Assembly: GCA_965261635.1 (NCBI GenBank)
Contig: OZ253463.1
Span: forward strand, 353,164 to 417,163
From: Chloroflexota bacterium
Lineage (GTDB): Bacteria > Chloroflexota > UBA11872 > VXOZ01
Length of the DNA stretch: 64,000 nt
Direction of reading: 5' to 3'
Shown here: in pieces, positions 3,020 through 53,772 of the stretch
Layout: each line of letters begins with the position of its first letter
Numbering within the stretch: the stretch's first letter is position 1
The notes under the pieces: model-generated
What the model saw: the letters and a program-made list of their open reading frames with translations, nothing else
Databases searched by the model: none
What the model was told of the DNA's origin: nothing
Position numbers and translations under genes: made by a program

Positions 3020-3284
3020 ATCGGTCAACACTGCCTGGTGGAAAGCGAATTCTGTCAACGAATTTTTCAACATTTACAGGAATGACGATAGCGTTAGTCC
3101 GATTCGCGTCTTGGGTATCACTACCAATTGTTGCTAATGCAGGTACCGTAGCGTGGGGGCTTGCCTAGAATGCTCCGGATGTATTATTTTGGTACAAGAC
3201 AGGGAGAAGAATGCGAATAGATTCGGATTTGGCATCTATCGCAATTTCATACGGTTCACTGTGGAAGATTAGGAGCAGCAAGAA

Positions 3285-4256
3285 ATGGCCGGCTTGACGC
3301 GAGTACAGCTCGATCACCTCGATGAACAAGGGTACGTGGTCGTAGACAACGTCCTCGATCCGGAGGAAGACCTAGCGCCGGTGATAGCGGAATACGCCGA
3401 CGTGCTGGACGGCATCGCCCGTGACCTCCATGCGGAGGGCGTCCTTGCCTCGACGTACGCAGACTTACCGTTTGATCAACGCCTCATTCAAGTATGTGAT
3501 GAGAGCGGCCAAATCTTCACCCAGGCATTCGACATCTCACTGCCGCAGAAAGCCGAGGGAGCCGACGCTCCCATGCACACGGGCGAGGCCGTCTTCAATC
3601 TGCTCGTGAACTCTCGTCTGCTTGACTGCGCCGAGAGCATTCTGGGGCCTGAGATTCTCTCCAACCCCGTACAGCATGTCCGCATGAAGCTGCCGCGTCA
3701 CGTCGTCCACGTGAAGAATCCTTCTAACCTCGCCGTAGCCGTGCCCTGGCACCAGGACAACGGCGTGGTGGTGGAAGAGGCGGACGAGACCGAGATGCTG
3801 ACGGTGTGGCTGCCCTTGAACGATGCCACCATCGAGAATAGCTGCATGAACGTCGTGCCCTACTCGCACCGGGACGACGAACTCGCAGTACACTGCCCGG
3901 GCGTCGGCGGCGTCTGGATACCGGAAAAGCTTGTGGACATTGCGAACGCCGTGCCGCTGCCCATGCAGGCGGGAAGCATTCTGCTCATGCACAGCAAGAC
4001 CATGCACTGCTCGTACGACAATAAGACCCAGGACGAGGTGCGCTGGAGCTTCGACCTGCGCTACCAGCCGATCGGTCAACCCACCGGTCGCCCAGTCTTC
4101 CCCGGGTTCGCGGCCCGCAGCCGCGCCAATCCTGAGTTAGAACTCCGCGATTCCACAACGTGGACCCAAATGTGGGAGGACGCCCGCCCGAAACTGGCCG
4201 TCTCTTCTACCGAGAACTTCAACCGCTGGTCCGCCGACCATCCGGTGTGTGCCTAA
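3285..4256 (+). CDS. PhyH family Fe(II)/2OG oxygenase, copy 2 (tandem paralog)
   Basis: The 323-aa ORF is collinear with copy 1. Its upstream ~80 bp and the downstream REP elements are duplicated as well. Confidence 0.75.
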   Translation: MAGLTRVQLDHLDEQGYVVVDNVLDPEEDLAPVIAEYADVLDGIARDLHAEGVLASTYADLPFDQRLIQVCDESGQIFTQAFDISLPQKAEGADAPMHTGEAVFNLLVNSRLLDCAESILGPEILSNPVQHVRMKLPRHVVHVKNPSNLAVAVPWHQDNGVVVEEADETEMLTVWLPLNDATIENSCMNVVPYSHRDDELAVHCPGVGGVWIPEKLVDIANAVPLPMQAGSILLMHSKTMHCSYDNKTQDEVRWSFDLRYQPIGQPTGRPVFPGFAARSRANPELELRDSTTWTQMWEDARPKLAVSSTENFNRWSADHPVCA

Positions 4257-4847
4257 GCAGGTTGGCGCTTACCTAGGGGCTCTTGCCGTATGGGACCGCG
4301 CATTCGCGGTTAGAAAATCCGCAGCGCGGAGGCTCGTCCCCCGGTTGAGACGCAAACTACGCAGTGTAGGAAGTTGGATTACCGCTTGCGCGGGAATAAA
4401 GGCATTGGATGCACGTGATTCTTGGCATTCACGCCACCCCAATATGCCTATTCCGCATCTGTAGCGCGGGGGCTTCTCCCCCGCTCCGGACCCGGACGCA
4501 AATCACGCGGCGCATGGAAGTTAGATTACCGCTTGCGCGGGAGTGACGAGCTTGTGCACACGGTTGGGAATGATGGCATCGGGCGCATCCGTCTGTCGGA
4601 TCTCATCACCATTAATTAGCGCGCACTCCGCAAGCGCATACGCCGTGCGTTTCCCGGTGCCTCGTCCCCGGCTCTGCGAATTCCTCATGCGGCCAAAGAC
4701 TTTGGATTCCGGGTCTGGGAAGCCATAGTATACACTTTGGGTAGCAGAATCATCCCCTCTCCCCGTGTGAGAGGGCTAGGGTGAGGGCAACAACAGCTTT
4801 CCGTGTCCTCTTCCTCCATGCACACCACGCTACGGGAGTAATACGCA

Positions 4848-5990
4848 ATGAAGATCACGTCTGTCGAGACCTTTGCCGCGCCGATCACATCGCGCGACGT
4901 GCTTATAGTGAAAATAAACACCTCCGAAGGCATCAGCGGCATTGGCGAAGCGTATCCGGTGGGGCCAAATCAGGCAGTGGCGGCCGCGATCGCTGATTTC
5001 GCCGACTGGATCGTGGGCAAAGATCCCCGCGACATCAACGGCATTTGGTACCATATGTACCTGCACTCGCGCTTTCCGGGCGGCTCTGTGATCAACGCCG
5101 CTATTAGCGGCATCGACCATGCCCTATGGGACATCAGCGGCAAGGCGGCCGGGCAGCCGGTGTACCGCATGCTCGGCGGCAAGTGCCGCGACCGCATTCG
5201 CGTGTACCAGGGTTGCGGCGGGCCGACACCGGAAGCCTGCGCGGAGAGCGCGAAAGCGCTCGTCGAGAAATACGGCTACACAGCGCTCAAGATGGCGCCG
5301 CATCCGCCGAACGCGAGCCAGATGTCTTGGAATGCCGTGGTAGCTGCGGCCGGTGATCGCATCGCGGCAGTGCGGGAAGCCGTGGGCCCGGACGTGGACA
5401 TTGGGCTCGATCCCCACGCCCGCATCTTCGAGCCGGCCCGCGCCCTGGAGATGGCGGCAGCAGTCGCGCCTTCCCAGCCGTTTTTCTTCGAGGAGCCGCT
5501 GCGCCCTGAGAACATCGATGCCCTCGCGTGGTTTGCGCAGAAGTCGCCGGTGCCCGTTGCCACGGGCGAGATGCTCTACACGTCGTTCGGCTTCCGTGAG
5601 CTTCTGGAAAAGCAGGCCGCGACTATAATCCAGCCGGACATTTGTGTCTGCGGCGGCCTGACCGAGATGCGCAAGATTGCCGCGCTCGCCGAAGCGCACT
5701 ACGTCAAAGTTGCGCCGCACAATCCGCTGGGGCCGGTAGCGACTGCCGTAAACGTCCACTTTGCCGCGGCGACACATAATTTCATCATCTTGGAGTACCA
5801 CGCCGACGACGAGTCGCCGCGCCGCGACATGCTAGAGGAGCCGGTCAAGCTTAAGGACGGTTACCTGGAGATTCCCGAAACTCCCGGCTGGGGCATTACG
5901 TTGAATGAGGATTACGTTCGCGACCGGCCCATCCGCTCCTGGCACCGCCCGTTCGACGTGAACCCCGACGGTTCTACGGCGTTCATCTAG
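4848..5990 (+). CDS. Enolase-superfamily enzyme (mandelate racemase/muconate lactonizing family; sugar-acid dehydratase-like)
   Basis: The 380-aa ORF has the MR/MLE N-terminal capping domain and C-terminal barrel with metal-ligand acidic residues (the QPD...E...D pattern). Confidence 0.8.
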   Translation: MKITSVETFAAPITSRDVLIVKINTSEGISGIGEAYPVGPNQAVAAAIADFADWIVGKDPRDINGIWYHMYLHSRFPGGSVINAAISGIDHALWDISGKAAGQPVYRMLGGKCRDRIRVYQGCGGPTPEACAESAKALVEKYGYTALKMAPHPPNASQMSWNAVVAAAGDRIAAVREAVGPDVDIGLDPHARIFEPARALEMAAAVAPSQPFFFEEPLRPENIDALAWFAQKSPVPVATGEMLYTSFGFRELLEKQAATIIQPDICVCGGLTEMRKIAALAEAHYVKVAPHNPLGPVATAVNVHFAAATHNFIILEYHADDESPRRDMLEEPVKLKDGYLEIPETPGWGITLNEDYVRDRPIRSWHRPFDVNPDGSTAFI

Positions 5991-40205: not shown

Positions 40206-41006
40206 CTACATGTAATTGTATCGAACCTTATTATACAGATTGTCAAATACAGCAACTATTTCTTCGTCACTGCCTAGCATTCGCAAATAGCGGTCAATCT
40301 CGTCAAAAGGGATTTCGAAGTATTGGTCGAACAACTGGGCACCACGATAGATATTGCTCGAAGGAACATAAATCGGTCCGTAACGCTTAACTGGGTTGAG
40401 GTAATACAGAACGGGTCTTAACGCATGAACGTCGGTCACCTCAAGGCGGTTTATCAGTCCAGCATAGGTCTTGATGAATTTGCGGTTAATGTCCACAAAT
40501 TTGCCTGTATCATGGTCGTCGTTGTACTTAATCTCGACATATACGCTTTGCTTGCCTCCTACTTGGAATAGTGCATCCACATCCTTTGTAATGGTTTGCT
40601 TCGGCGCAGGTGAATCGCGTTCAATTGACAGTATTCGGTTGAGGAGTTCTTGGAACACCTCGTCGCAACCATCTGGACTATCTGGAAGCTGCCGAGAAGT
40701 AATGTATTCGTCGATCAAGCTATCCGTTTCTGCGGTCATAGAGAGAGGGATCTTCTTGCCTGATTCCGGCAGTGCCGAAACCTTCGTATCGTAGTCAACC
40801 ACAAGAGCAATGAGTTTTTCAATGAAGTTCCCGAACTTAATGTTGAGAGATTGGAGCAAACCGCCCAGCACACGATATTGCGGAGGAATAAAGTGAATTT
40901 TCTCTTTGTGTAGTGCGACACTCCTTTGAATATTCCTCTCTGATATAGTTTGGTCGATGATCGTCCGGATAGCGGTACGGACTATAGCACGGACATCCTC
41001 ATCCAT
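40206..41006 (-). CDS. Putative Type II restriction endonuclease (HinfI-like partner of the adjacent CcrM-type MTase)
   Basis: A 266-aa ORF immediately downstream of the MTase in a lower-GC islet. It has a PD-(D/E)xK-like D...EIK core (VYVEIKYNDDHD). Its size matches R.HinfI-class enzymes. Confidence 0.5.
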   Translation of the reverse strand: MDEDVRAIVRTAIRTIIDQTISERNIQRSVALHKEKIHFIPPQYRVLGGLLQSLNIKFGNFIEKLIALVVDYDTKVSALPESGKKIPLSMTAETDSLIDEYITSRQLPDSPDGCDEVFQELLNRILSIERDSPAPKQTITKDVDALFQVGGKQSVYVEIKYNDDHDTGKFVDINRKFIKTYAGLINRLEVTDVHALRPVLYYLNPVKRYGPIYVPSSNIYRGAQLFDQYFEIPFDEIDRYLRMLGSDEEIVAVFDNLYNKVRYNYM

Positions 41007-41015
41007 TAACCGCGC

Positions 41016-42140
41016 CTATCCTTTCAGGCCGTGTTCCTCACGGTACTTTTCCCTCAATCGGTCGATACTCATACGTTCGCCGTTGGCACTCTCGAAGTAC
41101 CAAAAATCCCATCCGTTAAAGGCGGTCTGCCCAAGCAGGCTAGCCGCAACTTTATGAATTGAGCCCTTTACATTTCCTGACGAAAGTGTACCATCCGCAT
41201 GAATGATAGCTTCACACTCTCGACTCTGGGCGTAGAGAACCTGCCCTACCGACAAGTACCCTGCTTCGACGAGCGCGCTAAAACGTACGCGTGGCTGATT
41301 ACGTCTAGAGTTCGTGATTAACACACTGTCATCGTAAGGTAGGGGACAGATACTCTCGATGCGCTGGCGAGCAATCCGCACATAATTCACTTCCCGCTCA
41401 ATCCCAACGTAGTTTCGTTTAAGCTTTTTGGCAACTGCTCCGGTTGTACCGGAACCAAAAAATGGATCAAGCACGGTATCACCGGGATTGCTCGAAGCGA
41501 GTATCACTCGGTACAGCAAGGATTCCGGCTTTTGTGTGGAGTGTGCCTTTTCCCCATTTACCTTGATCCGCTCCGCGCCTGTGCAGAGCGGAATGTGCCA
41601 CACATTTGGCATCTGTTTTTCTTCGTTTATGTTTTTCATAGCGTGGTAATTGAACGTATATCGTCTTTGGCCCTCCGTCTTTTTTGCCCAGATTAACGTT
41701 TCCGTGGCATTCGTAAAGCGAGTACCGCGGAAATTCGGCATGGGGTTGGACTTGTGCCAAATTACGTTATTCAGTATCCAAAATCCCAAGTCCTGCATAA
41801 TGCTGCCCACGCGGAAGATATTGTGATACGTTCCGATGACCCAGATTGTGCCATCGTCCTTTAGCACACGCCGACAAGCTTCCAGCCATGCACGCGTGAA
41901 TTTGTCGTACTCTTGAAAACCAGAGAACTTGTCCCAGTTGTCATCTACCGCGTCTACAAGTGTTTGATTTGGGCGTATGAGTTCATTTTGCAACTGCAAG
42001 TTATAAGGAGGGTCAGCAAAAATCAAGTCTGCACTTCTTTCCGGCAACACCTGCAAGATGCGGATACAATCACCTTGGATGACTTCATTCAGGGGAAGTA
42101 CACTTCTTGTCGCTACCACGTTGGTTTCACGTTCAACCAC
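41016..42140 (-). CDS. Beta-class N6-adenine DNA methyltransferase, CcrM/M.HinfI family (GANTC-type)
   Basis: Near collinear with CcrM: IQGDCI...LPE.S.DLIFADPPYNLQL...L.RP....VDAVDD.WD.F.....YD.FTR.WL...RRVLKDDG.IWVIG.YHNIFRVG...QDLGFWILN...W.KSNPMPNF.GTRF.NA.ETLIWA, motif I DPFFGSGTTGA, and the CcrM-type C-terminal domain. Confidence 0.85.
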   Translation of the reverse strand: MVERETNVVATRSVLPLNEVIQGDCIRILQVLPERSADLIFADPPYNLQLQNELIRPNQTLVDAVDDNWDKFSGFQEYDKFTRAWLEACRRVLKDDGTIWVIGTYHNIFRVGSIMQDLGFWILNNVIWHKSNPMPNFRGTRFTNATETLIWAKKTEGQRRYTFNYHAMKNINEEKQMPNVWHIPLCTGAERIKVNGEKAHSTQKPESLLYRVILASSNPGDTVLDPFFGSGTTGAVAKKLKRNYVGIEREVNYVRIARQRIESICPLPYDDSVLITNSRRNQPRVRFSALVEAGYLSVGQVLYAQSRECEAIIHADGTLSSGNVKGSIHKVAASLLGQTAFNGWDFWYFESANGERMSIDRLREKYREEHGLKG

Positions 42141-43274: not shown

Positions 43275-43970
43275 TTATTCCGTGCTCCCCCAGCTAGGCG
43301 GTTTCCTGATCGTGCCGTGCACGTCTGTCTGCGTGTTCGGGAATTGGCTCCGCCGCAGATGGCTCTTTCGAAGCCTCTTGACATAGGTTGCCGCATCTAC
43401 CAAGTCCCTGTGGGTGACATTGTTGGAGTCTGGATTTACCACTGCAACACGAAGGTGCAATCCTTCTCGCACGTACTGTATCGCGCTCGCAAAGTCCGAA
43501 TCGTTCTATACTATCACAGCATGCTCGTACTCGTGATTGAATCCGTCAACCAGAAGCCTGGTTACGAGGTTCACGTCTGAGCCCTTTTCCTCCGCCTCTC
43601 TAATTTGCACGTAATCCGGCAATCCCGCTATTGGGCTGACCAGCGGACGACGTTTGGTGCGCAACCGGAACGTGCCAAAATGGGCCTCGAAGTTCGGCAA
43701 AGTTGCTAGCGCCCTCAGATACACCTGTTGGCGCTGGGGCTGACCAGGGTCATTTGGACGCGCATCGAGCATCGCGGTAAAGTAACAGATTTGATTGATA
43801 GTATCTTTCGGAAAGAGCACCTCAGCGAGTTTGCGCAAATTTAGCCATTTGAAGGGAGTGTCCCTTAGAGCACGATAATATAGATTGAAACCGTCTACGT
43901 AGACGTTGGTCTTCACTTGACACTCCATCTGACCACTTAAAGACAGAGACCGCTCTGAGAGCGGCCTCAA
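43275..43970 (-). pseudogene. NYN/LabA-like (PIN-like nuclease) domain gene disrupted by frameshift
   Basis: Frame A (43506-43970) has the NYN N-terminus VYVDGFNLYY...EKGSDVNL. The adjacent frame B (43275-43472) continues with VAVVNPDSNNVTHRDLV, typical of the NYN C-terminal half. It lies in a lower-GC islet between hisA and hisF. Confidence 0.45.
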
Positions 43971-45365: not shown

Positions 45366-46013
45366 TCAAGATTTAGCGTGCAGACCACTCGATGCACATG
45401 CCGTCGCGCCCGTTGCCCAGGCCACGAAATTCGCATAGAGCCGCAGGCCCATGGCGGCGCTCTTTTCCGGATGGAACTGGGTAGCAAAGACGTTCTCGCG
45501 CGCCAGCACGCTGGGAAAGGTCACGCCATAGTCGGTCGTACCGGCCGTAAGCGCGGCGTCGTCCGGATCGGTGTAGTACGAGTGCACGAAGTAGAAGTAG
45601 GCGTCGTCCGGGATACCGGCGAACATGGGATGCTCCTGCGCCTGGCGCACCTGGTTCCAGCCCATGTGCGGCACGGTAAGCCCTTTGGGGAAGCGCCGCA
45701 CCACGCCGGGATAGATATCCAGGCAAGGCGTGCCGCCATCCTCTTCACTCGCCGTCAGCAAGACCTGCAACCCCATGCAAATGCCGAAATAGGGCTTGCC
45801 GGACGCAATCGTCGCCTTCACCAGGTCGGTCATGCCGTGCCGCGCCAGCCCGCGAATAGTATCTCCCGCCGCCCCCACGCCGGGCAAAATCACAGCAGCA
45901 GAGCGCTCCACCACCGCCGGGTCCTGCGTCACCACATAGTCCTGCGTATACAACGCCACCGCGCGGCTAACACTTCGCAAATTCCCGGCACCGTAGTCAA
46001 TAATCGCAATCAT
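45366..46013 (-). CDS. hisH: Imidazole glycerol phosphate synthase glutaminase subunit
   Basis: MIAIIDYGAGNL N-terminus, catalytic Cys in GICMGLQ, and the C-terminal HPE. Confidence 0.9.
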   Translation of the reverse strand: MIAIIDYGAGNLRSVSRAVALYTQDYVVTQDPAVVERSAAVILPGVGAAGDTIRGLARHGMTDLVKATIASGKPYFGICMGLQVLLTASEEDGGTPCLDIYPGVVRRFPKGLTVPHMGWNQVRQAQEHPMFAGIPDDAYFYFVHSYYTDPDDAALTAGTTDYGVTFPSVLARENVFATQFHPEKSAAMGLRLYANFVAWATGATACASSGLHAKS

Positions 46014-46061: not shown

Positions 46062-47576
46062 CTAAACGAACTTTCTTACACTCCTAATCTTACTTAACTC
46101 GTTGACGAGGAATTCTTGAGGCCGGTCGCCTTTTGTGCGATTACAATGCCCACAAAGTAATTGGAGGTTTTCCATATGGTCTGTACCGCCGCGTGAGCGT
46201 GGAATGACATGGTCAACTTCAAATATCTTGAACGGAAACTCCATTTTGCAGCCATTGCACTGCCCTTCTTGTTTGCCAAAGAGAACGTGCTTGTTCTGGC
46301 GATAGGGAACGGGCGTGTCGATGTCGGTTCGCTTTGGCGTATCGGAACGGGACACGACTAGTCGGTCGTGAAACAACCCGCCCATTGCGTCTGCAAGCCG
46401 AAATTTCACAAGTTCAACCGCTTTTGGCGACAGGTCAATACCAACCCACCTACGTCCCAGCGACTCGGCGGCGACGCAAGCAGTGGCGCAACCACAGAAC
46501 GGATCCAATACCAAGTCTCCAGGGTTGCTGCTCGCCGAGATGATGCGTTCCAACAGCGCCAATGGCTTTTGCGTCGGATAACCGATGCGCTCCTTGGCTT
46601 GTGCCTGCACGGGCAGTATATCGCTCATGAAATTGTTGCACTTCTGACCCGGCGTGGATGCTAGGTATCGCTTCAAAGCTGGCATGCCACCTTTCTTCTG
46701 CGGCCAGTAGAGCATCCCAGCATCGTCCAACGCATTCAGTCGGTCATGTACCCCTTTGATGCTCTTGTAACCCGGTATTACGTTTTCCTCAATCCAATCG
46801 GCGTAGGACCCAATGCTCGGAACTGCCCAGTGCCGTCCGCTGTTGTTCGGATCTGCATCCCTCCACGGCTCGCCGCTCTCCCCGGTTCTTGTTTCCGCTG
46901 CGGTTAGATCGGACAATCTGAACCGTCCGCGCTCTTCCTCGTGGCGGTAAAACTTGCGGATGTATTCGGGATCGTGAGGGACATATACATTGTTCCATGT
47001 CGCCCCTTGGCCCGCATAATAGAGCAATACATCGTAGACTCGCCCAAACCGCTCTCCGTCTGACCGTCCAGTCGTCCGCTTCCACGCTATTTCGTTCCTG
47101 AAGTCTGCCGCGCCAAAGACACTATCCAGCAGCAGCTTTAGGTAGTGGCTTGCCGTGGGGTCGCAGTGGAGGTAGATGCTTCCATTTTCTTTCAGTACGC
47201 GCTTCATTTCCATCAGCCGTACGGTCATCATGCATAGGTACGATTGCATTCCCTTGCCGTGCGTTAGGCCGGCCGTCTCAATGACTTTGTACACGGCGGG
47301 TTGCTCATCGGCGATCAAGCCCATCCAGGCAACATCGAGATCGGAGAGCGTCCATGTGTCCTTGAAGGCGGCGCCCGCCGCCACGCTCCCTACCGGCGCC
47401 GCATAAGTTCGGTTGGAATTGAATGGCGGGTCAAGGTAGATGAGATCGACACAACTGCTATTCAGACCTCTTAGGATGTCGAGGTTATCGCCTGTCCAGA
47501 TCGTTCTGTTCGCAAAGTTGGGGTCAGTGTTCATGCCAATTGTTCCATGCGCTACTGTAATTGCGGGAGTTGGCAA
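46062..47576 (-). CDS. Beta-class (N4C/N6A) DNA methyltransferase fused to a C-terminal HNH endonuclease domain
   Basis: The 504-aa ORF has motif IV LDPPFNS near the N-terminus and motif I DPFCGCATACVAAESLGRRWVGIDL late in the protein. It ends in an HNH module (CNGCK...DHVIPRSRGGTDHMENLQLLCGHCN). It lies in a lower-GC islet. Confidence 0.8.
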   Translation of the reverse strand: MPTPAITVAHGTIGMNTDPNFANRTIWTGDNLDILRGLNSSCVDLIYLDPPFNSNRTYAAPVGSVAAGAAFKDTWTLSDLDVAWMGLIADEQPAVYKVIETAGLTHGKGMQSYLCMMTVRLMEMKRVLKENGSIYLHCDPTASHYLKLLLDSVFGAADFRNEIAWKRTTGRSDGERFGRVYDVLLYYAGQGATWNNVYVPHDPEYIRKFYRHEEERGRFRLSDLTAAETRTGESGEPWRDADPNNSGRHWAVPSIGSYADWIEENVIPGYKSIKGVHDRLNALDDAGMLYWPQKKGGMPALKRYLASTPGQKCNNFMSDILPVQAQAKERIGYPTQKPLALLERIISASSNPGDLVLDPFCGCATACVAAESLGRRWVGIDLSPKAVELVKFRLADAMGGLFHDRLVVSRSDTPKRTDIDTPVPYRQNKHVLFGKQEGQCNGCKMEFPFKIFEVDHVIPRSRGGTDHMENLQLLCGHCNRTKGDRPQEFLVNELSKIRSVRKFV

Positions 47577-47713
47577 ATAAAGTATACTGCACGCTCTATT
47601 GACTGTGCTAAGCCTGCGAAAGCAACGACCAAGTGACTGGCACTCGTATTGTATGATTTAAGTAGTAGAGTCTCGCTCTCACAAGAAGCATATGGGGGAA
47701 GTTTGCTGTTATC

Positions 47714-49537
47714 ATGTATTTTCTAAAGCCCTCACCTAGAATCTCAGACTTTGACAATTGCGCCTGGGAAGAGGCGGTTGATTCAGCCTATGCGAAGAAG
47801 TGCTCAGCCTACTTTGAGTCTTTTAGAGACAAGATTACAGAAACAGCTGAAAGAGGAGATGAGCAACAGCAAAACGTATTCACGGTAATGTGGGCTGCTA
47901 CTTCACTTCATCTCAACAATCCTTCCGACGAATCTAACCCGTTTTGTCCAATTGCGACTGGTACTGGTTTCCGGTTTGCAGAAGTGGATGATTTTACGGA
48001 TGAGCATCTAGAGGTCTTTGGTAAGCTAATCTCAAGAATCAAGGATCCAGAACTACGTGCGCGCATCGCGGACATCGTATGGGTACGGAACCGCAGTCAC
48101 AAGGTAGCAGAGCAGGCAGTTGGCGCGTACTTGGAATCTGCAGGAAGATTAGAAGACACGGATGTGCCCGAGCCACCGTGCATAGACAGAATAAAACGTG
48201 CCGTTACCCTAGCGGTGTTGCACGGAAGAAAAACGCAGATGTTCAAGCAGGTCATAGCACACATTGAAGATACCCTCGAAAGACACAAAGAGAACGACCC
48301 CTCGTATTTGTCCGCAGAATTAATGAAAATGTTGCTAGAAAAGAAGGTGGGAGATGGTGCGACGTACGCGCAGCTTGCAGAAAGGCATGCCATCGCCGCA
48401 GAAAGTGACGAGGACTGGTATAGACCTAAGACTTACTTGGAGTTGCAAGCTCGCTGGCTCGAACGTGCGAAGGACAATACGGGCAGCAGAGCAGCACACA
48501 TTAGAGTGGCAGAGCAATACGAGCACGCGGCAAGAGATCTAGCAAACCGAGCACGACCAGACTACCTAACGGCAGCGGAGCTCCTCAAGAGCGCCATTCA
48601 AGCCTATCAGCGCATTGGCGGAGAAGAGGAACGTATAGAGAAACTGCATCGAGAACTCCTGGAATACCAGCGCAAGGGAACAGGCCAAATGGGACGAGTC
48701 TCTGCGGAGATCCCGATAGACGACTTGAGTGCATCTGCGATTAACGCAGTGAAGGAAAAGCCAAAAAGTGAAGCAATTCGTGCACTGGCTTTGATTGATG
48801 ACCCTTCTTACCTTGGTTTTCTGCGCCAGCACGTTGAACAGGAGAAGGAAGATTTTCCTTTGCTACATATTCTGCCCTGGATTCAGCAAGATGCATCAGG
48901 GCGAACACTCGGTTCTGTTCCATCGTCACTCTCGGATAGCGCGGAAGATAAAGCGGCTGCAACCCATTCTCACTTACTGAGACATGCAAGTCTAATGCGC
49001 TCGCTGATGGTACAAGCTCGCATTGAACCAGCACGGCGACAGATTCATCAAGAACACAGTATGTGCGAGCAAGACTTTGCACCATTCGTTGCTGACAATC
49101 CCTTCGTGCCGGAGGGCAGAGAAACGCAGTATGTCCGCGGTCTCCACGCTGGCCTAGAGGGCGACTTCGAAATTGCAGTCCCTCTTCTGATCCCGGAAGT
49201 GGAGAACTCTATAAGGCATGTTCTGTCTCTACGCGGAGTGGTCACTTCAGGCCTGGATTCAAAAGGTATTCAAAGAGTTTACGGATTGGGGAAATTGCTC
49301 CATCGTCCTGAATTGAAGAAAATCTTGGGCAACGACATAGCTTTTGACCTACAGGGCCTACTGGTTAAGTCGGAGACAGGGGTGGGAGACAATCTTCGGA
49401 ATCGAATGGCGCATGGCCTGATGGACGACAAGGATTTCTTTAGAACAGACGCAATCTACCTTTGGTGGCTGGCGCTTCACCTGCTCGTTCGCTTTCAAAT
49501 TGCACGTGATTCTCGTGTTGGTCAGAGCCAGAGCTAG
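47714..49537 (+). CDS. Large hypothetical protein with a C-terminal HEPN-like Rx4H motif (GDNLRNRMAHG)
   Basis: A 607-aa, mostly alpha-helical ORF transcribed divergently from the MTase-HNH gene. The C-terminal ~120 aa carry an R-N-x-x-A-H-G motif, characteristic of HEPN RNase active sites in Abi-type proteins. Confidence 0.5.
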   Translation: MYFLKPSPRISDFDNCAWEEAVDSAYAKKCSAYFESFRDKITETAERGDEQQQNVFTVMWAATSLHLNNPSDESNPFCPIATGTGFRFAEVDDFTDEHLEVFGKLISRIKDPELRARIADIVWVRNRSHKVAEQAVGAYLESAGRLEDTDVPEPPCIDRIKRAVTLAVLHGRKTQMFKQVIAHIEDTLERHKENDPSYLSAELMKMLLEKKVGDGATYAQLAERHAIAAESDEDWYRPKTYLELQARWLERAKDNTGSRAAHIRVAEQYEHAARDLANRARPDYLTAAELLKSAIQAYQRIGGEEERIEKLHRELLEYQRKGTGQMGRVSAEIPIDDLSASAINAVKEKPKSEAIRALALIDDPSYLGFLRQHVEQEKEDFPLLHILPWIQQDASGRTLGSVPSSLSDSAEDKAAATHSHLLRHASLMRSLMVQARIEPARRQIHQEHSMCEQDFAPFVADNPFVPEGRETQYVRGLHAGLEGDFEIAVPLLIPEVENSIRHVLSLRGVVTSGLDSKGIQRVYGLGKLLHRPELKKILGNDIAFDLQGLLVKSETGVGDNLRNRMAHGLMDDKDFFRTDAIYLWWLALHLLVRFQIARDSRVGQSQS

Positions 49538-52809: not shown

Positions 52810-53772
52810 CTATGATTCCGCTTCCTGCACGTTTAGGACACGCACGTGCGCCTGCTCTGCTGCCGACTGCGCCGGACCGGAAAGCGGCCCGTTCACTACC
52901 AGCACGCCAACCTTGTGCGTATCTCCCTCCAATGCCGCCACAAGCTGCTCGACTTCGCTTGCGGGCACCGGCAGTTCCGGCACCACGCGCACGGCCAGGA
53001 AGCGTGCGCCTCTCTCCAGAGTAAGAGAGGCGGCCCCTTCATCCTGGCTGTCAGCCAGGGCCACCGCATATCCCTGTCGGCGCAGCCCGCGCACCGCAGC
53101 TTCCAGCAGCGAGGCACGCAACGACGCTTGGGGAGTCTTCGCAACCGGTGTCAGCGCCTTCAGCACGTCCTGGTGAATCCAGTGTTCTTGCGGCGTGGGG
53201 CCGATGTGCACCGGAGGATTCTCCAGAAACCGGTCCGCCCGGGAGTTCGCGCCACAGTAACACATAATAGCGTACCCAATAGGAATGCCGACCACACTGC
53301 CCACCGACGTAAAGAAGGCGAGCCAGAGCCAAAGGCCCTTCACGCGCATACCTTGGGCCACATACCAGCCACCGGTAAGCAAGAATGCCCCCCACTGCCA
53401 CTGTGTCGGCACAAGCGGCATTTGTCCGTTTGCCTCGCACCAGTGGCGATAGGCATCACCCCGAAACGACGCGGCACAATAGCAACCAAAGAACGACCAG
53501 AGTATGAGCGAACCGACGATCGCGGGAGGCACGGCCGCCGGAAATGAGAGCTGGCGGATGAGGAACAGCGTGTTGATAATCGCGAGTACAGTCACGGCGA
53601 CTTGGGGCACAAGCAGCACACGCCCCTTTTCACTTATTCCCTGCCGCAGATACCAGATCGCGCCGAGCGCAAACGCGGGCCAACTCCAGCCGTTGGGCGG
53701 CAGAGTGGGCCAAGCGGGAGATTGGACTGTCGAGGAAAGCTCCACTTGCAAGGCCTTTACGTCTGGTAGCAC
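52810..53772 (-). CDS. Membrane protein with a C-terminal restriction-endonuclease-like (Mrr-cat-like, possibly degenerate) domain
   Basis: Four or more N-terminal TM helices. The C-terminal ~110 aa (LEAAVRGLRRQGYAVALADS.DEG...LAVRVV...VGVLVV) resemble the Mrr catalytic fold but lack a clear D-(D/E)xK motif. Confidence 0.4.
   Translation of the reverse strand: MLPDVKALQVELSSTVQSPAWPTLPPNGWSWPAFALGAIWYLRQGISEKGRVLLVPQVAVTVLAIINTLFLIRQLSFPAAVPPAIVGSLILWSFFGCYCAASFRGDAYRHWCEANGQMPLVPTQWQWGAFLLTGGWYVAQGMRVKGLWLWLAFFTSVGSVVGIPIGYAIMCYCGANSRADRFLENPPVHIGPTPQEHWIHQDVLKALTPVAKTPQASLRASLLEAAVRGLRRQGYAVALADSQDEGAASLTLERGARFLAVRVVPELPVPASEVEQLVAALEGDTHKVGVLVVNGPLSGPAQSAAEQAHVRVLNVQEAES

Follow-up and report, generated by a model that had tools for sequence, protein, structure and literature searches.

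Among the described systems closest to this locus, the characterised Type IIG and Type IIL enzymes have an N-terminal PD-(D/E)XK nuclease and a gamma-class methyltransferase, and in Type III mod genes and Type IIG enzymes the recognition domain varies among otherwise near-identical alleles. PrrC serves as a back-up once a phage blocks restriction. It occurs almost exclusively within Type I restriction-modification (R-M) systems and is listed among the ABC-ATPase defence proteins (bioRxiv 10.1101/2024.01.29.577857). PDC-S39, one of 145 PDC candidates, was given a putative anti-phage role and was nominated for its embedding in Type I R-M, BREX or DISARM operons (bioRxiv 10.1101/2024.01.29.577857). 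In addition, bacterial HEPN members of the C6orf70 type were found in R-M related operons, and their eukaryotic relatives are ER-membrane proteins with a transmembrane helix, for which RNA degradation at the ER membrane was predicted (Anantharaman et al., 2013).

The locus described here lies on a Chloroflexota chromosome, in a window of 64,000 nucleotides (the whole stretch of DNA that was analysed). An earlier note, made from the sequence alone, had read it as a compact two-gene defence cassette composed of a DNA methyltransferase-HNH (MTase-HNH) fusion and a 607-aa protein with a HEPN-like motif. Both genes are real, and the ORF list has each of them where that note had placed it. The features are as follows.

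45366..46013, minus strand: hisH, the backbone gene that directly follows the fusion downstream on the same strand; its start was read off the sequence
46062..47534, minus strand: MTase-HNH fusion gene (ORF list; Pfam N6_N4_Mtase and HNH)
46122..46259, minus strand: HNH (beta-beta-alpha-metal) nuclease domain with two CxxC pairs, DH and N (Pfam)
46404..47450, minus strand: beta-class N6/N4 DNA methyltransferase domain, residues 43-391 of the 504-aa ORF (Pfam)
46635..47129, minus strand: variable middle segment, presumed target-recognition domain (TRD), residues ~136-300 in the 490-aa numbering
47535..47713, no strand: divergent intergenic region between both genes, read from the sequence
47714..49537, plus strand: 607-aa protein, PDC-S39 member, with DUF7380, a TPR-like solenoid and DUF4209/HEPN (PADLOC, Pfam)
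47741..48241, plus strand: DUF7380 N-terminal domain, residues 10-176, with the invariant patch DPELRARIADxxW (Pfam)
47999..48703, plus strand: TPR-like alpha-helical repeat region, residues ~96-330
49109..49534, plus strand: C-terminal HEPN domain, residues ~466-607
49397..49414, plus strand: Rx4H catalytic motif R562-N-R-M-A-H567, with R562, N563 and H567 invariant

The mechanical ORF of the fusion (46062..47576, minus strand) encodes 504 aa from a TTG. Since its homologues were 480-490 aa long and their alignments began at residue ~15, translation probably begins at the ATG at 47534, so that the product has 490 aa and the intergenic region 179 bp instead of the ~140 bp estimated before. Scans of the islet found no standout sigma-70-like promoter, terminator or repeat above background in this region, and no Rfam match. 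Downstream of the fusion, 48 bp separate its stop codon from the ATG at 46013, the probable start of hisH; this hisH is 87-97% identical to hisH at syntenic loci. The two genes form a low-GC islet upstream of hisH, as had been noticed (GC 0.50-0.56 vs 0.62-0.68 in the flanks). The GC3 of the fusion (0.63) and of the 607-aa gene (0.49) were both below the 0.69-0.83 of the backbone genes, which gives both the appearance of horizontal acquisition and, at 0.49, marks the 607-aa gene as foreign. A classical Type II R-M pair is present elsewhere in the window (40206..42140).

Pfam matched residues 43-391 of the fusion to N6_N4_Mtase (E 1.1e-39). In the 504-aa ORF, DPPF occupies residues 49-52 and the SAM motif, DPFCGCATA, lies near residue 360, so that motif IV precedes motif I and the enzyme is of the beta class. 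The motif order given in the earlier note was thus right, but its FxGxG is not strict, the letters being FCGCA. Sequence matches of the MTase in the PDB were CcrM, M.MboIIA, M.RsrI and Type III Mod, and the conventions for the DPPF motif suggest a predicted N6-adenine enzyme. The C-terminal HNH had been called complete, and it indeed has both CxxC pairs, DH and N, with the catalytic His/Asn and the zinc-binding cysteines intact (Pfam HNH, E 4.8e-14, residues 440-485; HNH_5, E 5.2e-13). Across the fusion family the SAM motif was invariant, and so were DPPF and the CxxC..DH..N..CxxCN residues in 121/121 proteins (C426, C429, D441, H442, N456, C461, C464 and N465). With MTase and nuclease domains in one chain, the fusion has the architecture of a single-polypeptide R-M enzyme.

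The middle segment of the fusion behaved differently from the rest of the protein. Between the window fusion and its syntenic orthologue (P0074), the differences were almost confined to the presumed TRD, with 20-60% identity in the middle segment vs 90-100% on either side. Among pairs with a core identity of >= 90%, the TRD identity ranged from 0.32 to 0.98 with a median of 0.44, and core and TRD identity were uncorrelated family-wide (r = 0.05). The presumed TRD is shuffled independently of the core, and together with the invariant catalytic residues this is why a self-contained R-M enzyme fits. The sequence variation of the family is that to be expected of a restriction enzyme whose specificity switches during evolution.

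The 607-aa protein had been described as belonging to no recognised named system, but it is a full-length member of the PADLOC candidate PDC-S39. Its residues 4-597 matched positions 4-584 of the 595 in profile PDLC05011 (E 2.9e-192), and a second profile, PDLC05012, matched with E 2.6e-130. Pfam assigned DUF7380 (E 8.5e-42) and DUF4209 (E 9.1e-12; residues 496-589, 45.3 bits vs a gathering threshold of 22.3), and no ATPase domain. In the homologue alignment, D111, E113, R117, D120 and W123 of DUF7380 were invariant. The C-terminal RNxxAHG motif was found as RNRMAHG at residues 562-568, R562-x4-H567 conforms to the HEPN pattern Rx4-6H, and N560, R562, N563, H567 and G568 were invariant in 25 homologues with identities down to 29%. 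No PDB sequence was matched when the C-terminal domain was searched as a profile. The AlphaFold model of the whole protein, a monomer, had a pLDDT of 89; fold searches with it returned TPR and alpha-solenoid matches only, which masked the HEPN domain, and residues 405-607 were therefore modelled separately. The protein has the helical HEPN fold, a point that the earlier note had left to a structural check. Our literature searches found no experiments with DUF7380, DUF4209 or PDC-S39.

The relation between the two genes was then compared across genomes. The syntenic set comprised 10 hisH ... UbiE-MT loci, the window included and L081/L082 entered as one. Both genes, in the same divergent arrangement, were present at four of them (the window, L001, L081/L082 and L084), and PDC-S39 stood without the fusion at another four (L002, L083, L255 and L256). 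At L254 PDC-S39 adjoins decayed fusion fragments, and at L253 the fusion is present and the PDC-S39 slot is filled by a QatC-like gene (PADLOC QatC, 1.3e-51) and a 261-aa ORF. Moreover, the fusion, PDC-S39 and the flanks have discordant histories: relative to the window, L081 is 92-98% identical in the flanks, 78% in the fusion and 74% in PDC-S39, and L001 is 72-91, 90 and 56% identical, respectively. Comparison of occupied (window, L001, L081, L084) with empty (L083, L002) sites revealed no target-site duplication or clear junction of the fusion; the intergenic DNA is too diverged between them.

Beyond the hotspot the genes were found apart. PDC-S39 is a patchily distributed family of many phyla, archaea included, with 1353 clusters at 50% identity and E <= 1e-30 that keep a single ~600-aa architecture. 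In a neighbour census of 80 species-level bacterial and archaeal loci, based on crude ORF calls, the fusion adjoined PDC-S39 in only one (L001, from the window's own Chloroflexota lineage). The neighbours included MTase_I in up to 10 ORFs, Specificity_I in 6 and REase_I in 5, with the order hsdM/hsdS - PDC-S39 - hsdR in roughly 5-10 of the 80 loci; integrases and resolvases were also nearby. No neighbour family occurred in more than about 10 ORFs, as is expected of a single-gene unit. Homologues were carried by 31 plasmids, some of them conjugative, and the two plasmid regions that were read had no adjoining fusion. In the reverse direction, close homologues of the fusion (69-88% identity) at unrelated loci outside the hotspot (L085, L086, L087 and L252) were solitary among housekeeping genes and lacked PDC-S39, which was also absent at about 10 distant fusion loci. 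The proposed two-gene cassette and its expected co-occurrence are not supported by these counts.

The MTase-HNH fusion is a common and widespread methylase-nuclease type, abundant in metagenome assemblies, where all members with a named source are labelled Chloroflexota. Scans of JGI metagenomes and IMG/VR returned mostly methyltransferases without HNH, 40-50% identical to the fusion, and the reverse co-occurrence test therefore depends on few true fusion loci. A prophage-encoded orphan enzyme class, which the earlier note had considered, does not describe the fusion, as the HNH was present in only 1/80 of its viral-contig relatives. Prophage origin was rejected on the same rarity and on the lack of nearby phage genes. 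A Type III R-M system was rejected since no Res helicase-nuclease gene is adjacent in the window or at other fusion loci, and a classical Type II system since there is no separate endonuclease gene, the neighbours of the fusion being hisH and PDC-S39.

We consider it quite probable that the locus holds two independent single-gene defence-type modules, neighbours in a variable hotspot that is bounded by hisH on one side and by a conserved membrane-protein/UbiE-methyltransferase block on the other. Between near-identical flanks this slot carries variable cargo, namely PDC-S39, MTase-HNH, the QatC-like gene, an NYN gene or a Type II R-M pair. The reading starts from the observed domain content, invariant catalytic residues, HEPN fold, shuffled TRD, horizontal origin and occurrence of either gene without the other, and the defence-type character first proposed for both genes is supported. 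From it we infer enzymatic activities, a trigger and a defence phenotype for the two modules. The first, the fusion, would act as a one-polypeptide R-M enzyme with an exchangeable middle TRD: its MTase would methylate those host sites that the enzyme itself recognises, and the same TRD would direct the zinc-stabilised HNH to unmethylated incoming DNA. In the second, PDC-S39, the TPR-like scaffold and DUF7380 would be a sensor or autoinhibitor; upon infection the HEPN domains would pair, as is usual in this superfamily of metal-independent RNases, their Rx4H motifs would build the active site, and the cleavage of RNA would halt phage growth while sacrificing the cell. The PDC-S39 members within Type I R-M operons leave room for a HEPN protein that could monitor an adjacent R-M enzyme.

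A more specific reading of the fusion is put forward tentatively. It would be a biochemically undescribed one-polypeptide R-M enzyme, made of a Type III-Mod/CcrM-like beta-class adenine MTase, a swappable TRD and an HNH, in which the C-terminal HNH may substitute for a separate restriction subunit. By analogy with PrrC/EcoprrI, the PDC-S39 HEPN protein of this lineage might sense the state of the fusion. Literature searches, with REBASE outside their scope, found no characterised enzyme combining a beta-class MTase with HNH, and to our knowledge a one-polypeptide R-M enzyme composed of a Mod-like beta-class MTase and HNH has no biochemical description.

An actual PrrC/EcoprrI-type pair specific to this lineage, with the HEPN protein latent under or monitoring the fusion and released as a back-up suicide RNase when a phage disables it, seems unlikely; in essence this is the model of the earlier note. 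The nomination of PDC-S39 for Type I R-M, BREX and DISARM embedding (bioRxiv 10.1101/2024.01.29.577857), the hsd-flanked loci of the census and the R-M operon association of this HEPN family in Anantharaman et al. speak for it, and the divergent arrangement kept in 4/10 syntenic genomes would allow a lineage-specific functional link. Nevertheless, PDC-S39 stands without the fusion in four syntenic genomes and next to a decayed copy of it in a fifth, in a sixth another gene takes the place of PDC-S39 beside the fusion, the fusion is solitary at unrelated loci, and it is missing from 79/80 PDC-S39 loci. Moreover, the divergent genes are not co-transcribed, the PDC-S39 gene of the window has no hsd neighbours, and its protein lacks the ABC-ATPase domain listed for PrrC (bioRxiv 10.1101/2024.01.29.577857).

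It is also quite unlikely that the fusion is a selfish mobile gene, with an HNH for homing or nicking, a protective or orphan epigenetic MTase, and PDC-S39 as a mere neighbour. This would agree with solitary fusions among housekeeping genes at different loci, with a fusion phylogeny at odds with the flanks, with the frequency of HNH domains in homing endonucleases, and with the close HNH-less MTase relatives that are common on phages and plasmids as lone methylases. However, TRD shuffling against a near-invariant core is expected under selection for target change and not under site-tied homing, neither flanking repeats nor a conserved insertion site was found, and the fusion shares its hotspot with other defence cargo. 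A housekeeping RNA-processing or regulatory role of the 607-aa protein is very improbable: the gene is kept at the same site in 9/10 related genomes, its family is one of defence candidates only (bioRxiv 10.1101/2024.01.29.577857) and Anantharaman et al. predict ER-membrane RNA degradation, not defence, for eukaryotic C6orf70, but its GC3 is that of a foreign gene, it diverges faster than the flanks (74% vs 92-98%), a QatC-like gene takes its place in one close relative, its homologues occur on conjugative plasmids, beside integrases and within R-M operons, and the family is patchy across many phyla and archaea.

The proposed new two-gene immune system fails, and in its place stand PDC-S39, a candidate already catalogued, and a fusion of wide occurrence as chance neighbours. 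The lesson is one of caution against inferring function from adjacency inside defence hotspots, and the hisH-proximal slot of this Chloroflexota lineage offers a clean natural case of cargo turnover.

Compared with known systems, the fusion resembles the Type IIC/IIG/IIL enzymes (MmeI, BpuSI) in having MTase, recognition domain and nuclease in one chain, and Type III mod and Type IIG in the variation of the TRD between near-identical alleles. Unlike Type IIG/IIL, it has a beta-class (Mod/CcrM-like) MTase followed by a C-terminal HNH, and its cleavage is only predicted. Matches to Type III Mod structures cover its N-terminal part and its core, but it has no Res helicase subunit. Lone N6_N4 methyltransferases of phages and plasmids, such as Streptomyces phages and rhizobial plasmids, are 40-48% identical to it over residues ~10-400, the middle domain included, and stop at residue ~400 without the HNH. 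As for the 607-aa protein, it shares the DUF4209 match, the conserved Rx4H and the HEPN fold with the C6orf70/ERMARD family; in its model, the part before the HEPN consists only of DUF7380 and TPR-like helices, in contrast to the transmembrane helix of eukaryotic C6orf70. Like PDC-S39 members from different phyla, it is a single-gene unit of ~600 aa with their architecture, and the Type I R-M embedding for which the family was nominated was recovered here, whereas the window copy lies outside Type I R-M, BREX and DISARM operons and adjoins the hisH-side MTase-HNH gene. PrrC is likewise an RNase effector genetically tied to R-M, and some PDC-S39 members are similarly embedded; the window protein differs from it in its DUF7380 and TPR-like repeats and in being divergent and separable from its R-M-like neighbour.

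Two divergent open reading frames (ORFs) were found beside hisH in a low-GC islet, as an earlier note on this DNA had reported, and this was borne out by the ORF list and the GC profile.

46062-47576, minus strand: fusion of a DNA methyltransferase with a C-terminal HNH domain (hereafter the fusion), 504 aa when read from TTG, with Pfam matches
46635-47129, minus strand: variable middle domain of the fusion, exchanged independently of the almost invariant catalytic core (alignment with the family members P0071-P0190)
47714-49537, plus strand: member of the PADLOC phage defence candidate family PDC-S39, 607 aa, carrying RNRMAHG (residues 562-568)

The GC content was 0.50-0.56 over both genes compared to 0.62-0.68 outside, and the GC3 was 0.63 in the fusion and 0.49 in the 607-aa gene compared to 0.69-0.83 in hisF, hisA, hisH and the far-side genes. 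Both genes are foreign in composition. The ATG of hisH lies 48 bp downstream of the fusion stop codon on the same strand. Since the homologues of the fusion are 480-490 aa long and align from about residue 15, translation probably begins at the ATG at 47534, and the divergent spacer would then measure 179 bp.

A complete Type II R-M pair (40206-42140, minus strand) occupies a second islet of low GC (0.45-0.49), immediately downstream of hisF. Its nuclease has 266 aa and matched PADLOC REase_II (E 5.2e-58) with no Pfam match, and its methyltransferase (PADLOC MTase_II, E 2.5e-167) is CcrM/HinfI-like and carries a RAMA domain. At this position the syntenic relative L081 had no CcrM-like methyltransferase and instead a different 284-aa gene with no Pfam match. 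Between hisA and hisF lies a NYN-domain gene (43287-43970, minus strand; PADLOC HEC-09, E 2.2e-23), of which L255 and L256 have intact 210-aa copies and which is missing from L081. The window sequence can be aligned in this frame along the full 210 residues, but its ORF ends after 154 aa, and the gene appears to have a premature stop. The tested representative of HEC-09 gave no phage protection (bioRxiv 10.1101/2024.01.29.577857).

The 607-aa protein belongs to a catalogued family, as it gave a full-length PADLOC match to PDC-S39 (PDLC05011, E 2.9e-192). The Pfam search placed DUF7380 at residues 10-176 (E 8.5e-42) and DUF4209 at residues 496-589 (E 9.1e-12). When 25 homologues were aligned, down to 29% identity, N560, R562, N563, H567 and G568 were invariant, and so was the N-terminal patch DPELRARIADxxW. 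The HEPN call made from the sequence was thus correct. According to Anantharaman et al. 2013 (PMC3710099), their C6orf70 HEPN family overlaps DUF4209 and "occurs in R-M related operons". The AlphaFold model was all-helical (pLDDT 89), and a fold search with the whole model returned TPR and alpha-solenoid proteins, which reflects the middle third. The 145 "phage defence candidates" that include PDC-S39 are untested according to their authors, who nominated them because members are located inside operons of the BREX, DISARM or Type I R-M kind (bioRxiv 10.1101/2024.01.29.577857). The PDC-S39 family comprised 1353 clusters at 50% identity (E <= 1e-30), nearly all of about 600 aa.

In the 504-aa ORF of the fusion, Pfam matched N6_N4_Mtase at residues 43-391 (E 1.1e-39) and HNH at residues 440-485 (E 4.8e-14). 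The motifs stand in the beta-class order that the earlier note had described, DPPF coming before the SAM-binding motif; the latter reads DPFCGCATA and not the strict FxGxG of that note. The family is very abundant: at least 8000 candidates were found at E <= 1e-10, and the best 120 of them were 63-92% identical to the fusion and had the same two-domain architecture, the few with a source name among these being called 'DNA methyltransferase [Chloroflexota]'. Relatives at 40-50% identity from plasmid, phage, IMG/VR and JGI sequences mostly end near residue 400, without the HNH. No published biochemistry for the methylase-HNH architecture was found in a literature search, REBASE being outside its scope.

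The earlier note had proposed an unnamed two-gene cassette, and the distribution of the two genes did not support co-occurrence across genomes. A scan limited to a single genome for each species yielded 80 PDC-S39 loci, distributed over archaea and many bacterial phyla, and tblastn with the fusion located it next to PDC-S39 in only one of them (L001, on a Chloroflexota MAG that shares synteny with the window). When the ORFs lying no more than 2.5 kb from these 80 genes were searched with Pfam and PADLOC, the upstream neighbours included Type I specificity subunits (6 ORFs) and methyltransferases (up to 10), and the downstream ones Type I restriction subunits (5); integrases, resolvases and HTH/M78 pairs were present too. 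Copies on plasmids were annotated solely as 'DUF4209 domain-containing protein', and in the two plasmid regions read their neighbours included recombinases, an IS110 transposase and an antirestriction gene. Among 160 loci, just one further case of a methylase near PDC-S39 was seen, on a viral contig (L109, 8001-13154), where a related methyltransferase without HNH has a 24%-identical PDC-S39-like gene 2.4 kb downstream.

Solitary homologues of the fusion were present at four unrelated loci (L085, 84% identity; L086, 69%; L087, 69%; L252, 88%), amid transport or metabolic genes and with no PDC-S39 at any of the four; nor was PDC-S39 found near about ten true fusions that are more distantly related. 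The L252 fusion has a HigB toxin and a Dsr1-like protein as neighbours. At both L252 (5380-11036) and L085 (7777-11035) the fusion is flanked by a HigB-type toxin pair on one side and by a 967-aa protein on the other. The similarity of this protein is confined to the C-terminal part of Dsr1 (E 1.7e-16), and an ORF of 127-223 aa precedes it. Possibly the fusion belongs here to a second, small defence cluster.

The order hisA, hisH, slot, (membrane protein), UbiE-type methyltransferase and Mrr_cat protein was syntenic in ten assemblies. Both genes occupied the slot in the window, L001, L081/L082 and L084, while PDC-S39 faced hisH directly, without the fusion, in L002, L083, L255 and L256. In L254, an intact PDC-S39 gene stood beside decayed fusion fragments (4171-4825) that cover residues 15-109 and 310-417 only and lack the middle domain and the HNH; hisH no longer neighbours this site, which indicates a local rearrangement. 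In L253, with flanks 89-98% and a fusion 92% identical to the window, the PDC-S39 slot (3068-5717) was filled by a 623-aa QatC-like protein (PADLOC QatC, 1.3e-51; DpnII-MboI nuclease domain) together with an ORF of 261 aa that matched no family. The QatC-like gene may be an unusual Qat-like variant lacking other Qat genes. Relative to the window, the identities were 92-98% (flanks), 78% (fusion) and 74% (PDC-S39) in L081, and 72-91%, 90% and 56%, respectively, in L001. These identities are discordant with the flanks, and together with the patterns of presence and absence they show that the fusion and PDC-S39 have had separate histories of gain, loss and exchange at the hisH slot. On the far side, the gene at 52810-53772 (minus strand) has backbone GC and is conserved in all syntenic genomes; its 320-aa product ends in a weakly matching restriction-endonuclease domain, Mrr_cat (E 6.7e-5).

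These results indicated that the islet is a small defence hotspot with two independent single-gene modules, the first from a widespread, uncharacterised methylase-HNH family and the second a new member of the catalogued candidate family PDC-S39. The defence-type interpretation of the earlier note was therefore retained for each gene singly, and its new two-gene system was given up in view of the independent distribution. A PrrC-like guard model could apply in this lineage, and we consider it unlikely because either gene is maintained in the absence of the other and transcription of the two is divergent.

Between the fusion of the window and its syntenic orthologue P0074, identity was 97-100% at residues 16-120 and 90-100% at residues 301-490, and only 20-60% at residues 136-300. 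Among 121 family members (7260 pairs), core and middle-domain identities were uncorrelated (r = 0.05), and in the 198 pairs with a core identity of at least 90% the middle-domain identity had a median of 0.44 (range 0.32-0.98). DPPF and every catalytic or zinc-binding residue of the HNH were invariant in all 121 members.

What the analysis shows for the two modules are their domains, fold, invariant residues, foreign composition and independent distribution, and from these features we inferred the activities, trigger and phenotype. In the PDC-S39 protein, DUF7380 and the TPR-like part would keep the HEPN domain inactive and sense an infection cue, upon which pairing of HEPN domains would form the Rx4H active site and RNA cleavage would abort the infection. 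The fusion would methylate the copies of its motif in host DNA, and the same recognition domain would place the HNH on unmethylated incoming DNA. In a housekeeping orphan methylase one would not expect recognition domains to be exchanged as modules. Such exchange on a conserved catalytic chassis is known from Type III mod and Type IIG alleles, and since the middle domain of the fusion, presumably its recognition domain, is swapped on a conserved core in the same way, its sequence reads as that of a self-contained methylase-nuclease with specificity under diversifying pressure, most likely a one-polypeptide R-M enzyme.
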